Assembly: GCA_048270185.1 (NCBI GenBank)
Contig: JBLWTJ010000001.1
Coordinates: forward strand, 1,024,001 to 1,088,000
DNA length: 64,000 nucleotides
Direction of reading: 5' to 3'
Source of the DNA: Bacteriovoracaceae bacterium
GTDB taxonomy: Bacteria; Bdellovibrionota; Bacteriovoracia; Bacteriovoracales; Bacteriovoracaceae
In this document: positions 33,001 through 36,000 of the stretch, one piece after another
Layout: each line of letters opens with the position of its first letter
How positions within the stretch are numbered: position 1 is the stretch's first letter
Position numbers: made by a program

Positions 33001-36000
33001 ATAAGCTTATGACTGAAGAATACCTCTCAATGGATAATGCCAAGTCTGACTATCTCCAAAAAATGCGAGGACATTGGCTCTACTTTAAAGATATTTTTGA
33101 AAACGAACACAAGGTTTATAAGAAAGTGAAAAAGGTCAAATCAATCGAACACTATAATGATGTCGTCGAGTGGATCTTTGAACAAGATCTTAATCCTTCT
33201 TTCTTGAATTAAATCATTGAATGTAAGAAACAAAGTTTCATAGCATTTTAAAAGTTAACATCCCTAATTTGATTCACAAGTCCACGTATAAGTACCACTA
33301 CTAACCCAACAATCTTCTTTTGCATTATTAGGAATACCATGCTTAGCCATACATTCACCATGATAATATCCATCCTCTGTTTTTGTACAACAAGACTTCA
33401 CATCATCCCCCACACAATAAGCTCCACTTCCAGTAGGTGTCGGATTTGTACATGTTCTTGATCTAACATGTGATGTAGTATCGCAAGCTCCCCATTCACT
33501 CCAACCACCATCACGATCACACTCAAAAACATTACATGACTGCTGATATACACCACTACAATTAGTACCACCATTTGAAGGTGCAGGATTAGTACATGTA
33601 CGGGTCATTAAACCGCCGCCACAATCTTTGCTACAAGTAGACCAATCTGACCAACCGCCATTAACTGGACAAACTTGAGTATTACAGACTTCACTGGTAC
33701 TACCGCTACATTCGGCACCACCATTTTGAGGATATGGGTTTGAACAGCTACGAACGCGGATACCACCTCCGCATTGAGCGGAGCATACCCCCCATGCAGA
33801 CCAGCCACCATCAACTGCTTCTAACTCTTTAACGATAGGAATACATTTTAAAGTACCATCACTATTGATACCACTGACAACATGGTCCACGGGACAGTTT
33901 TGCTCAGAAAAATCACGACATCTACTATTTACACAAATTTTTGTTGTCGAGTTGATATCCGCATTTACATTTAGAGTACCAGTCATAGTGTCACCACTAA
34001 TTTTAACGTAGAGTGTATTTAGATAGTTAGTTACAAAATCAATGAGGTACTCAGTTGATATTGCATCAGACTTTGTTGGTGTAACTGAAGGATCAAAGTC
34101 AACAAGTATACATTTATTTGTAACATGATCGTAAACACCACCTATTTTCGTACAAGATTCAATAACGGCAGTATCCACCGCATTACCTAAAGCAGAAAAA
34201 CAAGATACTAACTTATTATTCTCATCTAAGTTAAATTCGACTGGATAACTTTTAACAATCTTTTTATTACCTTTTATTAATTTAGACATACGTTGCATTT
34301 CAACAACGAGCTTTCCCTCTCCAGCTTTCTGACTTGGACCAACAGTTACAGAGTTGAAGTCTTTCAAAGTCATGGATGCTATTTTGATCGTATTATTTCC
34401 ATATACGTTAGTAGTATTTAAAATATCATTATTTAACTTATTCTTTATACTTGATATTGATAGATCGTTAGTTAAAGTTTCACCAAGGCCAAATGTATTT
34501 ACACATGACTGATTATTCAGTAGAGCTTGCGCTATTCGACTATTAAGAGCATTCTCTTCGTACTTAGTCTCCATACGCTTTTGCGTAGTAACTTGATTAT
34601 GAGTTAAGTTCATAAATGCTACGGAGAGAACACCTAAGAGGCCTGCCGCAACCATAATCTCAACTAGCGTGAAACCTTTAATATTTAACTTCATTTACAC
34701 TCCAACCATAATTAGATATGTTACTGAACTAAATTTAATTGACAATAAATTTAACTTTTCTGAAAGTTTCTATTAAGGAACGTTTTTAAAGAAGGAACAA
34801 TTCAACATGCAGTTACGAGATCTCTTAATTAAGTACATTGAAAAGAAAGAAAAGACTTATGGAAAATACTCTCTCTCCAAACTATCCTTAGACACGGGCG
34901 TTAGCAAAACTACACTTAGCGGCTTTATAAATAAAGACAGAGTACCGAGCAGAGAAAACCTCTTCAAGATCGCTCAAACTGTTACAACAAATAAAGCTAT
35001 TCTAAAAAAGTACTCAACAGAGCTTGCAACAATAAAGCAAAGCAAACATAGAAAAAAAATCATTTCTTACAAACTTTTTAAAGAAATCAGTGACTGGGAA
35101 TATTTTGCAATCATTGGCTTAACACGCTTAAAGGACAATTCAGCAAATGAAGATTGGATTGCAGATAAATTATCAATTGAAAAAAGCAGAGCAAAAAAAT
35201 GTCTCAAGAAACTTCTTAAAGAAGGATTGTTAAAAATAAAGGACAACCGATTATATAAAGACTATAAGCATCTAGGAACACCTACTGAAATTTCTAACCA
35301 AGATATAAAAAAGGCCCACTCGCAAGCGATTAATTTATCAGAAGAGGCCATGTACACCATACCGTTTAAACATAGACAATACATAACATCAAATCTAACA
35401 ATAAAAGATGAAGACTTAGTAGAAGCAAGAGAGGAGCTAGACAAACTAGTTAAAAAGTTTATTAAAAAATATAACTGTGAAACAGAAGCTGACGCTCTCT
35501 ACAAGTTAAATATTCAATTCTTTCCATTAACTTCAGTAGAATAATTCTTACTCGAATTAAATCTAATCTTAGATTAAATCATGGCCCTTGCTTCTGTGAT
35601 CTCTTTCACTATGCAGCACCAGGTTGGATATCATCTAATGCAGGTATTATATTTTTAATTAATTGTATTAGCTTCTCAAAGTCCACAGGCTTTTCAAAGT
35701 AATCGACGGCCCCAAGCTCTGTTACCTTGTCCTTATATTCATTACTCGAATATCCCGAGATCATTATCGTTGCAATATTAGGAAACCGCGCACGAACTTC
35801 CTTTAAGAGTGTCACTCCATCCATTCCAGGCATATTTATATCACTTAAGATCAATATTACATCATAACCTTTATCACTTTCTAAAATCTCTAGTGCATCT
35901 TCGCCTGATATTGAATAAGTTAAGGTCATTTTATTCGACTTTATCCAATTTTTGAAAACATGTTTAAAGATAAAGAATACATCCTCTTCATCATCAACAA

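Follow-up and report, generated by a model that had tools for sequence, protein, structure and literature searches.

One gene of the window (the whole stretch of 64,000 nucleotides that was analysed) joins a type IV prepilin signal to thrombospondin type-1 repeats (TSRs). On balance, we favour the reading that its product is a modular type IV pilin-like protein made by a marine predator, in which TSRs from a bacterial pool are mounted on a scaffold specific to the family of the organism, and that this protein acts as a low-abundance adhesive subunit, probably located at the tip of a filament. The gene was found in plastic and seawater metagenomes, and thus the organism is marine; none of the runs listed for the gene is an RNA run. 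The names of the nearest Dus proteins place the bacterium in Halobacteriovorax.

The gene is an intact open reading frame with an ATG start. The fusion of pilin and TSRs is not an assembly artefact, since the whole gene is spanned by one contig of 13.3 kb in run X1, and a 562-base contig of run X3, from another study (33474-34035), crosses the pilin/TSR junction at about 33815. The coding sequence and its segments are as follows.

33264..34694, minus strand: whole coding sequence of the modular prepilin-type protein, 476 residues plus stop (open reading frame, Pfam, NCBIfam, contigs of two studies)
34674..34694, minus strand: predicted leader peptide, residues 1-7 (MKLNIKG), whose final Gly marks the class III signal cleavage site (sequence, N_methyl, TIGR02532)
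34491..34673, minus strand: mature N-terminus, residues 8-68, with the hydrophobic stretch and the long alpha-1 helix (AF2 helices 10-59 and 61-68, pLDDT 87-98)
34110..34490, minus strand: pilin-like globular domain, residues 69-195 (AF2, pLDDT 86-98: four-stranded antiparallel sheet 103-166, helix 168-183)
33819..34109, minus strand: family-specific stalk of about 100 residues, residues 196-292 (conserved in the family consensus; pLDDT 75-94)
33666..33818, minus strand: TSR1, residues 293-343, compact two-Trp form (WxxWxxC, CSxxCGGG, RxRxC) with 6 Cys (Pfam TSP_1 297-342; spacing 5,5)
33513..33665, minus strand: TSR2, residues 344-394, compact form with 6 Cys (Pfam TSP1_spondin 347-392)
33387..33512, minus strand: TSR3, residues 395-436, degenerate (third TSP_1 stretch at E<=1; pLDDT 61-84)
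33267..33386, minus strand: C-terminal tail, residues 437-476, with 3 Cys (448, 462, 473), poorly modelled (pLDDT about 44-57)

The prepilin leader and pilin helix reported in the first-pass annotation stand. The N_methyl domain of Pfam scores 23.3 bits at residues 4-26 (cut-off 21.2), the NCBIfam model TIGR02532 scores 18.4 bits (cut-off 16.3), and AF2 predicts a helix at 10-68. The N-terminus has Gly at -1, Phe at +1, Glu at +5 and a short charged leader followed by a hydrophobic stretch, as in class III signals. In the part corresponding to the alpha-1 helix, the family profile matches PDB sequences of geopilin (E 2.3e-5) and TcpA (6.9e-4), and also those of PilA, MshA and GspG. Cysteines 64, 165, 181 and 195 of the pilin-like domain are invariant or nearly so across the scaffold family. 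Taken together, the signal scores above the cut-offs, the profile matches and the modelled helix with its four-stranded sheet (pLDDT above 90) point to the character of a pilin. VIA-align of the N-domain model gives weak matches to the minor pilin PilB, GspK and TTHA1218 (7b7p_A, 3ci0_K, 5g25_A), with Z about 4.8, which is within the noise and amid many coiled-coil rows. Foldseek with the full-length AF2 model finds nothing at E<=0.001.

The stalk consists of a helix (214-228), a GDTMTGxL motif and one hairpin unit bounded by cysteines (C254...C284), which is repeated in paralogues. Positions 227-251 of the family profile have a short and weak match (E 0.0048) to the long tail fibre proximal subunit 9f4a_Le.

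The three C-terminal TSRs of the first-pass annotation were also found, the third being real although degenerate. Pfam TSP_1 scores 51.4 bits (cut-off 21.6), with 3 stretches at E<=1, of which 2 are at E<=0.001. TSR1 and TSR2, which are 53% identical to each other, have the WxxW and CSxxCG motifs, the Arg ladder and the six cysteines of a TSR in a shortened form, whereas TSR3 lacks CSxxCG and has 5 cysteines, including a terminal CC. In the AF2 model of residues 289-476 (mean pLDDT 73.9) the repeats are predicted to adopt the elongated three-stranded fold, and Foldseek matches this model to thrombospondin-1 TSR2-3 (3r6b, E 5.3e-9), to 1lsl (3.6e-8) and to properdin chains. The net charge of TSR1 and TSR2, counted from the sequence, is about -1 each. 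Binding of the heparin type through basic TSR faces was considered and rejected, as both repeats are slightly acidic; thus the heparin-type binding of animal TSRs is not simply transferable.

Full-length relatives of the protein are two proteins of 429 amino acids (P0008 and P0024; 45-46% identity, 80% coverage), both recovered here as in the first-pass annotation. They have no TSR2, whereas TSR3 is kept in all orthologues. A further copy, in G091, has lost the pilin part and adjoins an rve-type transposase, and thus the gene is dispensable at least in G091. TSR1 is 71% identical to this copy, and the tail is the segment best conserved with it (32 identical positions out of 40). Independent fusions of a pilin with TSRs are seen in the prepilin-annotated protein P0097 (438 aa), also known from the first pass, and in the Gammaproteobacteria MAG locus L085; both score N_methyl and TSP_1. 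Within the organism's own genome, TSP_1 occurs in this gene only. The longer pilin of the same genome, a frame of 691 amino acids, has indeed only the N-terminus in common with it (46% over residues 3-69).

The scaffold, that is, residues 1-290, is almost confined to the organism's own family (Halobacteriovorax and its kin). At E<=1e-15 it is found in 26 of 401 sampled genomes of the phylum, namely in G000, in 24 of 100 others of the same family, and in 1 of 300 outside it. Its cluster representatives, 158-826 aa long, number 1023 at E<=1e-3, 286 at E<=1e-10 and 43 at E<=1e-30. Tandem arrays of scaffold genes occur in G101, G102 and G120. Among the best 150 of the representatives, TSP_1 is present in 8 and Peptidase_S74 in 13, most having no Pfam match, and a scaffold paralogue in the organism's own genome bears a jacalin-like lectin. 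Thus the family consists of modular pilins with very different C-terminal modules: TSRs, a jacalin-like lectin, S74. A literature search combining pilin, S74 and Bdellovibrio found no relevant description of the scaffold family, and one combining thrombospondin type 1 repeat, bacteria and pilin found nothing relevant.

Peptidase_S74 is described as the chaperone/protease domain of trimeric phage fibres and of MAT proteins (PMC10769870). One could suppose that the family forms homotrimeric fibres, as a pilin-anchored counterpart of MAT or as a counterpart of CofB/TcpB, with three copies sitting at the filament tip or priming assembly and presenting three TSR rods. The C-terminal position of S74 in those 13 representatives, the tail-fibre match of the conserved GDTMTGxL region and the variation of the tips, as in MAT proteins, agree with this, and CofB is described as a trimer at the tip (PMC8179133). 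However, S74 is missing from the TSR protein itself, the solved structures that were matched show TSRs as monomeric rods, residues 196-290 are confidently modelled by AF2 as a monomer, and the tail-fibre match is short and weak. We consider such trimers rather unlikely.

The own genome has 2 matches to Peptidase_A24, 8 to T2SSE and 4 to secretin. On contig 4, one cluster combines a secretin and an A24 peptidase with two ATPases and a major-pilin-like gene of 183 aa. Contig 1 carries a T2SS-like cluster at 828-836 kb, which includes minor pseudopilins. As the first-pass annotation noted, the gene is not within a pilus operon; no pilus genes adjoin it, and thus the choice of the filament system is a guess. 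One more possibility is a pseudopilin-like subunit of the T2SS-like system or of another type IV filament that acts inside the envelope, as a periplasmic piston cap or a cargo adaptor, and is no surface adhesin. Apart from the T2SS-like cluster itself, this agrees with weak N-terminal matches to the NCBIfam families GspI, GspH, GspG and ComGE, and with the structural match to GspK, which has the same Z as the matches to pilins. However, all these NCBIfam matches are below the family cut-offs and reflect the shared helix only. On the other hand, the TSR rod, the lectin-bearing paralogues and the S74-capped relatives suggest outward-facing binding modules. A purely internal role thus seems improbable, and an adhesive pilus subunit, as proposed in the first pass, is the most reasonable function.

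As for the source of the repeats, the first-pass annotation regarded them as being of animal type and the module as acquired from a marine eukaryote. In its recent form, this would mean that the three TSRs were taken from a bivalve, a coral or another marine eukaryote and grafted on a pilin. The marine habitat fits this, and so does the absence of TSP_1 from all 12 other genomes of the genus, where our count is the same as the earlier one. The named top matches are indeed coadhesin-like proteins of bivalves and corals, but their high scores are sums over several repeats and cover only 28-32% of the query. In comparisons of TSR1 and TSR2 as single repeats, the best bacterial or metagenomic matches have 63-72% identity (76-89 bits), whereas the best animal ones have 57-59% (66-72 bits) and are gapped. 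The G+C content is 0.41-0.43 in the TSR part against 0.31-0.32 in the 5' part. However, this rise may well result from the Gly, Cys and Trp codons of the repeats.

TSP_1 is recurrent in the lineage. It is present in 23 of 237 genomes and 13 of 69 genera of the organism's own family (22 of 236 in the terms of the first-pass count, which had been 4 of 236), and in 43 of 401 sampled genomes of the phylum, from 6 families. The architectures are unrelated: some are Sec-signal proteins conserved across 4 or more genera, others are giant proteins or further pilin-like proteins. Moreover, named bacterial MAGs contain 18 loci with TSR regions 47-66% identical to the query; the groups include Thermodesulfovibrionia, Bdellovibrionota, Saccharibacteria, Paceibacterota, Gammaproteobacteria and Burkholderiales.

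The repeats also differ from animal ones in spacing. In the compact form, denoted 5,5, the first number counts the residues from the first Trp to the first Cys, and the second those from the three positions after the CxxC pair (canonically GGG) to the next Cys. This spacing occurs in none of the 333 pattern-fitting repeats of named animal proteins, 289 of which have 8,7 or 11,9. Elsewhere, it is found in all 4 repeats of the orthologues, in all 3 of P0097, in 5 of 20 from the phylum and in 42 of 301 from metagenomes. In a tree of 50-residue repeats, TSR3 falls into a clade with its orthologues and 8 of the phylum's repeats (support 0.96). TSR1 and TSR2 are poorly resolved in this tree (supports 0.06-0.9), and therefore for these two we rely on the indel signature. 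At least one protein with a eukaryotic label (P0029, EukProt) also has the compact form, so that the bacterial pool should be understood as "not animal" rather than "exclusively bacterial". By the spacing and the nearest relatives of TSR1 and TSR2, an animal type of the repeats is thus not supported, and a recent transfer from an animal is very unlikely. In the preferred reading, the TSRs would have come from a bacterial pool of compact TSRs that was already in circulation, and would have been joined to the family-specific scaffold; TSR2 would reflect either an internal duplication or a loss in the 429-aa orthologues. The literature search on thrombospondin type 1 repeats in bacterial genomes, including PF00090, produced no paper on bacterial TSRs among those listed, as judged by titles and abstracts, and the matches for Bdellovibrio and thrombospondin concerned type 3 repeats.

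The surroundings of the gene were compared with those of the Dus gene in G102, G104 and G091. Of 11 proteins of the window, Dus itself is present in all 3 loci and the N-terminal part of the pilin in 1, G091, where it belongs to a paralogue; no other window protein was found near Dus in these loci. No insertion site could be reconstructed from this comparison. A conserved pairing of the gene with the divergent DUF4423/HTH regulator was considered and rejected, as among 26 other loci (L004-L030, L011 excepted; flanks of about 1.5 kb) only L025 contains a regulator homologue. The promoter scan at the gene gave 9 sites, which is the level of shuffled sequences (7.6 +/- 3.8), and no terminator-like site was found in the scan. 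It is very unlikely that the gene is a decaying or unexpressed accessory gene with no function at present. Its absence from the closest genomes, the loss of surrounding synteny and the truncated G091 copy beside the transposase agree with such a reading. However, the 476-codon frame is unbroken with all 28 cysteines in place, all segments are conserved with orthologues along the entire length (45-80% identity), and a natural variant of the gene has 5 synonymous and 3 non-synonymous changes. The same three observations on the sequence support the view that the gene is likely to be under selection.

We infer the adhesive role, the location at the tip and the oligomeric state of the protein, and the mechanism can be imagined as follows. 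The prepilin would be inserted in the inner membrane, its 7-residue leader would be removed by one of the genome's two A24 peptidases, and the 28 cysteines would be oxidised to disulfides in the periplasm. The alpha-1 helix would then take the subunit into a type IV filament, the T4aP system of contig 4 being the first candidate and the T2SS-like set the second. The bulk of the subunit would keep it rare, most likely at the tip. There the three TSRs may form a stiff disulfide-bonded rod that presents the tail, and the faces of the repeats themselves, for adhesion to prey envelopes or other surfaces.

Type IV pili are required for prey invasion by Bdellovibrio-like predators, and little is known of how prey is recognised, above all in the marine genera. 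The scaffold family mounts many binding modules on a pilin and thus provides a concrete list of candidates for recognition of prey or surfaces. A bolder and rather doubtful extension is that, in marine predators, the scaffold of pilin and stalk (about 290 residues) plays the part that MAT fibres play in Bdellovibrio: a lineage-specific set of possibly trimeric tip adhesins on type IV pili, with tips (rods of compact TSRs, jacalin-like lectins, phage-type fibres capped by S74, and many folds of unknown kind) swapped by recombination, which together would set what prey and surfaces Halobacteriovorax strains seize. If this is true, the TSR member would be the first thrombospondin-repeat adhesin in predation of bacteria on bacteria. 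The comparison also corrects a tempting story of transfer from animals to bacteria. TSRs turn out to be a regular although sparse component in Bdellovibrionota (about one sampled species in nine) and in several other bacterial groups, and the compact form bears on the source of this "animal" adhesion module.

Similarly to the TSRs of animals and Apicomplexa (thrombospondin-1, properdin, semaphorin-5A, TRAP), TSR1 and TSR2 contain WxxW, CSxxCGGG, the Arg ladder and six cysteines. Unlike animal TSRs, they miss one Trp/Arg layer and have the short spacing, and TSR3 has lost its CSxxCG. The C-mannosylation and O-fucosylation of eukaryotic TSRs are not expected in the bacterial periplasm.

Modular pilins, such as PilB and PilC of Streptococcus sanguinis, have been proposed to serve as adhesins exposed at the tip (Raynaud et al. 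2021, PMC8179133). The architecture IPR012902-IPR000884-IPR000884 (pilin-TSP1-TSP1) is already given for 1 protein in Dataset S1 of that paper, so that the present protein, with N_methyl and TSP_1 in one ORF, belongs to the class of modular pilins. As in these proteins, the N-terminus combines a class III signal with a small pilin module, and a putative adhesion domain that is not specific to pilus biology follows. On the other hand, the pilin module is followed here by the lineage-specific stalk of about 100 residues, the terminal module consists of three compact TSRs and a Cys-rich tail instead of a vWA or lectin domain, and the host is a diderm predator. The type IVb minor pilins CofB and TcpB, compared here by their description in PMC8179133, are likewise large, with extra C-terminal domains, a flexible linker and a proposed location at the tip. 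However, the present protein has a short leader, as in type IVa pilins or pseudopilins.

Finally, in the mosaic adhesive trimer (MAT) proteins of Bdellovibrio bacteriovorus a Sec signal is followed by an N-domain rich in beta structure and about 130 aa long (Caulton et al. 2024, PMC10769870), and the word "pilin" is absent from the main text of that paper. Compared by this description rather than by sequence, the present family differs in that it has a prepilin signal and a predicted pilin fold in place of the Sec signal and the N-domain, in that it is found almost only in the family that contains Halobacteriovorax, and in that its trimer is hypothetical. What the two have in common is a predator-specific family with an invariant N-terminal anchor, variable and swappable tips, and members with and without a terminal S74 domain.

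The first-pass annotation described a pilin with three thrombospondin type-1 repeats (TSRs). This observation is confirmed by the intact reading frame, by the Pfam and NCBIfam domains, and by a contig from a second study that bridges the junction. The gene, the parts of its C-terminal half and the divergent neighbour are as follows.

33264..34694, minus strand: pilin gene, intact ORF, 476 aa, ATG start
Residues 293-343: TSR1, with WxxW, CSxxCGGG, the RxR ladder and six cysteines
Residues 344-394: TSR2, with WxxW, CSxxCGGG, the RxR ladder and six cysteines
Residues 395-436: TSR3, without the CSxxCG motif, with CC at the end
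Residues 437-476: tail, with three more cysteines
34807-35544, plus strand: HTH_3 and DUF4423 regulator, divergent from the pilin gene, 112 bases apart

The protein opens with [12 protein letters not shown] and a stretch of about 20 hydrophobic residues, the classic form of a class III signal whose leader is short. Pfam domain N_methyl matches residues 4-26 (23.3 bits, cut-off 21.2), TSP_1 scores 51.4 bits (cut-off 21.6), and TSP1_spondin covers residues 347-392. The NCBIfam prepilin cleavage/methylation domain is above its cut-off; matches to ComGE, GspI, GspH and GspG are sub-threshold only and all lie on the common N-terminal helix. TSR1 and TSR2 are 53% identical. The protein contains 28 cysteines, an even number that would be compatible with full disulfide bonding.

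The gene is present in public runs of plastic and seawater metagenomes. In run X1, which may itself be the source of the assembly, one 13.3-kb contig covers the whole stretch. In run X3, from another study, the stretch is tiled by four contigs, one of which (33474-34035) crosses the boundary between the stalk and the TSRs at about 33815. The X3 variant has 8 differences within the gene, 5 synonymous and 3 non-synonymous. Thus the architecture does not stem from chimeric assembly, and nature maintains the open frame.

The first AlphaFold2 (AF2) model was built from an alignment of 59 relatives of residues 1-290 (pilin domain and stalk, together named the scaffold). The pLDDT exceeds 90 at residues 20-220 and is 75-85 at residues 220-290. 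The model begins with a long alpha-1 helix (10-59, 61-68), followed by a four-stranded antiparallel sheet (103-166); then come a helix (168-183) with small hairpins, another helix (214-228) and two more hairpins. Its layout resembles that of a pilin. Foldseek found no match to solved structures at E<=0.001. With VIA-align, PilB (7b7p, a minor pilin of S. sanguinis), GspK (3ci0_K) and TTHA1218 (5g25) reached Z 4.8, a weak score attained equally by many coiled coils. The family profile matches PDB sequences over the helix, namely geopilin (2.3e-5), TcpA (6.9e-4), and also PilA, MshA and GspG. The second model, of residues 289-476 (alignment of 34 TSR-bearing sequences), has a mean pLDDT of 73.9, reaching the 90s within TSR1 and TSR2 and low beyond residue 436, in the tail. 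It matches TSR2-3 of thrombospondin-1 (3r6b; E 5.3e-9, 44% identity over 112 columns), as well as 1lsl and the TSRs of properdin, complement C6 and semaphorin-5A.

When residues 1-295 were run with HMMER against the full set of 1.84 billion representatives, 1023 relatives of the scaffold scored E<=1e-3, of which 286 reached <=1e-10 and 43 reached <=1e-30. They are 158-826 aa long, and most matches stop at about residue 287 or about residue 196 of the query. The full protein has matches in 179 of the 237 genomes of its own taxonomic family (E<=1e-5), a count that includes generic pilin-helix matches; strong genome matches span residues 4-287 and lie in frames of 369-605 aa. With the threshold at E<=1e-15, 26 of the 401 genomes sampled from the phylum have the scaffold, namely the own genome, 24/100 others of the family and 1/300 outside it. 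Tandem arrays of scaffold members were found in other genomes (G101 contig 9, G102 contig 4, G120 contig 1). Judged by these sequence matches, the N-terminal 290 residues form a separate family, largely specific to the lineage.

The family consensus retains Cys64, 165, 181 and 195, the motifs AVSTxxL and GDTMTGxL, and a Cys-bounded hairpin unit CVxxxCRxF...CxxGxV...INxDGTxxC, repeated several times ahead of the tip in many paralogues. The GDTMTGxL region weakly matches the proximal subunit of a phage long tail fibre (9f4a_Le, E 0.0048). A CC pair occurs within the last 45 residues of 50/149 scaffold-family proteins (P0121-P0269), often 3-10 residues from the end, and anywhere else in only 13/149. 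It looks like a family-wide C-terminal feature; in the query, CC closes TSR3.

The C-terminal tips vary. Among the 150 best representatives (55 in alignment A1, 94 in alignment A3, and P0024), TSP_1 was found in 8 and Peptidase_S74 in 13 (e.g. P0145, P0158, P0161, P0166, P0170, P0173; locus L030 of genome G202 is another example), and the majority of tips match nothing in Pfam. Of the 153 sequences of the two alignments, only 43 show N_methyl. Peptidase_S74 is the intramolecular chaperone/protease of trimeric phage fibres; no description of a pilin joined to such a domain was found in the literature searched. Intein_splicing/Hint domains in 2 representatives (2/94 A3 members) and a glycosyltransferase family 2 domain in one A3 member may represent odd fusions or gene-call mergers. 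Further relatives are encoded in the own genome. One of them, a 392-aa frame (contig 1, about 498113-498508; L008:736-1911, minus strand), contains N_methyl and a jacalin-like lectin domain (24.9 bits, cut-off 22), and by its domains is a second modular pilin with a sugar-binding module. The 691-aa frame previously named as sharing the N-terminus does so (residues 3-69), and the resemblance ends there.

Two metagenome proteins, P0008 and P0024 (429 aa, 45-46% identity over 80% of the query), share the pilin domain, the stalk, TSR1, TSR3 and a related tail and have no TSR2. The closest TSR-bearing copy is in G091, from another genus of the same family (L012, contig 1, 69433-73290); none of the three TSRs is missing from it, nor is the tail. 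The identity of this copy to the query is 55% in the stalk, 71% in TSR1, 57% in TSR2, 71% in TSR3 and 80% in the tail; as the best conserved part, the tail may well be a working surface besides the TSRs. Everything before residue 191 is gone from this copy. About 350 bases away, in the opposite orientation, is an ORF of 326 aa with an rve integrase core (48.5 bits), and thus the pilin part was probably cut off by an insertion element.

The proposal that the TSRs were probably acquired from a marine eukaryote is not borne out: a recent animal donor is rejected by five lines of evidence taken together (taxonomic spread, contexts, MAG loci, single repeats and spacing), which say nothing on the domain of life where TSRs arose. 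The named animal matches contain many repeats whose scores add up, and each covers just 28-32% of the query. Firstly, a six-frame search with PF00090 gave hits in 23/237 genomes of the family (13/69 genera), in 0/12 other genomes of the own genus, in 43/401 genomes sampled across the phylum, in six families (9/100, 6/20, 9/53, 9/27, 5/57, 4/9), and in 0/14 control genomes. Secondly, TSRs within the family occur in unrelated contexts. Proteins of about 390-470 aa with a Sec signal carry one or two TSRs between two unknown domains in at least four genera (L032, L034, L036, L037 and L041 of genomes G001, G140, G070, G077 and G089); this conserved family argues that TSRs are old residents of the lineage. 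There are also giant TSR-bearing frames of 1518 and 3149 aa, and a 663-aa frame of G015 in which the Cys hairpins are combined with one TSR and a Gly-rich end; this frame scores TSP_1 and not N_methyl.

Thirdly, when one genome of each prokaryote species was scanned with a pattern, 18 loci emerged, whose MAG record titles name Thermodesulfovibrionia, Bdellovibrionales/Bdellovibrionota, Saccharibacteria, Paceibacterota, Nomurabacteria, Staskawiczbacteria, Portnoybacteria, Gammaproteobacteria, Burkholderiales and others; the best TSR segments are 36-66% identical. One of them, L085 from a gammaproteobacterial MAG, is a prepilin with two TSRs, and the metagenome protein P0097 is another prepilin-TSR fusion. 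The N-terminal parts of both are unrelated to the scaffold beyond the helix, and thus the fusion arose more than once.

Fourthly, single repeats were cut from 120 listed matches and the fetched loci; of 888 domain hits, 779 remained once exact duplicates and hits to fewer than 39 profile positions had been removed. In this set TSR1 is most similar to the G091 copy (72%, 89 bits) and metagenome proteins (68%, 86 bits), followed by P0097 (63%, 82 bits) and repeats of the phylum (63%, 79 bits); the best animal repeat has 59% and 72 bits (gapped, 56 columns). The ranking for TSR2 is similar, and TSR3 is equally distant from everything except its orthologues. In a FastTree tree of 308 repeats (random 110/359 animal and 110/367 metagenome repeats, all others included), TSR3 pairs with the orthologous repeat of G091 (support 0.98); the 12-repeat clade around this pair (0.96) also takes in 8 repeats of the phylum and two more from orthologues. 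TSR1 and TSR2 fall in poorly supported mixed clades, mostly bacterial and metagenomic.

Finally, the spacing differs. The signature consists of the number of residues from the first Trp to the first Cys, and of those between the three positions after the CxxC pair (canonical GGG) and the next Cys.

Spacing signatures, counted in pattern-fitting repeats only
Query: 2/3 fitting (TSR1, TSR2); 5,5 in 2/2
Orthologues: 4/7 fitting; 5,5 in 4/4
P0097: 3/3 fitting; 5,5 in 3/3
Named animal proteins: 333/359 fitting; 8,7 in 234, 11,9 in 55, 5,7 in 32, 5,5 in 0
Other genomes of the phylum: 20/40 fitting; 5,5 in 5
Unnamed metagenome proteins: 301/367 fitting; 5,5 in 42

The compact 5,5 class, which would lack one layer of the Trp-Arg stack, is also seen in 5/18 named MAG loci. 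Its carriers are not all bacterial: P0029 belongs to a protein set of eukaryotes, and a few more resemble protist or viral proteins with a membrane anchor.

The G+C content is 0.41-0.43 in the TSR-coding part (window 33250-34000) and 0.31-0.32 in the 5' part of the gene (34000-34750), a difference that probably reflects the codons for Gly, Cys and Trp rather than a foreign source. The pilin gene is convergent with dus (tRNA-dihydrouridine synthase); further neighbours are a response regulator with a GAF histidine kinase and a P-type ATPase, and none is a pilus gene. A homologue of the DUF4423/HTH regulator adjoins 1/26 other scaffold-family loci examined (L025 only), so these loci show no conserved pairing. 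In comparison with G102 (window 29195-33212), Dus is 97% identical, the adjacent ATPase has only a 39% match located elsewhere in that genome, and the kinase/regulator pair has 67% DNA identity and lies 19 kb from dus there; the neighbourhood is a mosaic. In G091 a different scaffold-family member (L098) is convergent to dus.

A named Halobacteriovorax sp. has a Dus protein 96% identical to the one next to the pilin gene; for other Halobacteriovorax entries the identity is 72-75%. The genome (3.35 Mb, 30 contigs; G+C about 0.30-0.43 in the window region) has matches to A24 prepilin peptidase (2), T2SSE-type ATPase (8) and secretin (4). Contig 4 contains a T4aP-like cluster with a secretin, a peptidase, a 183-aa major-pilin-like gene and two ATPases; contig 1, a T2SS-like cluster with small pseudopilin-like genes; contig 5, a third set. 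Any of these is a candidate uptake machine for the TSR protein, and the context does not single one out.

The sequence data establish the signal, the domain order, the family with its variable tips and the presence of the machines; beyond that, the protein most probably works as follows. The leader would be cut and Phe+1 methylated, disulfides would form in the periplasm, and the subunit would join a type IV filament via alpha-1. Owing to its bulk, it would be present in low copy number at the tip, by the argument of Raynaud et al. for modular pilins (PMC8179133). A ligand would then be bound by the TSR rod and/or the conserved tail. An outward-facing binding role is the most economical reading of the lectin-bearing paralogue and the S74-capped relatives.

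Another possibility is that the scaffold trimerises, as suggested by its S74 members and the tail-fibre-like motif. The family would then be a pilin-anchored analogue of the mosaic adhesive trimer (MAT) fibres of Bdellovibrio bacteriovorus, which have a Sec signal and a conserved N-domain, together with a trimeric fibre and tips that may or may not be of the S74 kind (PMC10769870).

Neither a lineage-specific scaffold family with swappable tips, S74 included, nor the enrichment of TSRs in Bdellovibrionota, nor the compact TSR class was found in the literature searched. The finding would gain in interest if the scaffold family proved to be the prey-recognition repertoire of marine predators. 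The modular pilin as such is a known kind: row 241 of Dataset S1 of Raynaud et al. (IPR012902 - IPR000884 - IPR000884, 1 protein) already catalogues a pilin with two TSP1 repeats, so this bare architecture is listed once in a supplement, and the word thrombospondin has 0 occurrences in the main text of PMC8179133. As a scaffold with varied tips, the family follows the pattern of these modular pilins, described in the same paper (Raynaud et al. 2021) as more than 1,200 proteins with 264 architectures and argued there to be likely tip-exposed.
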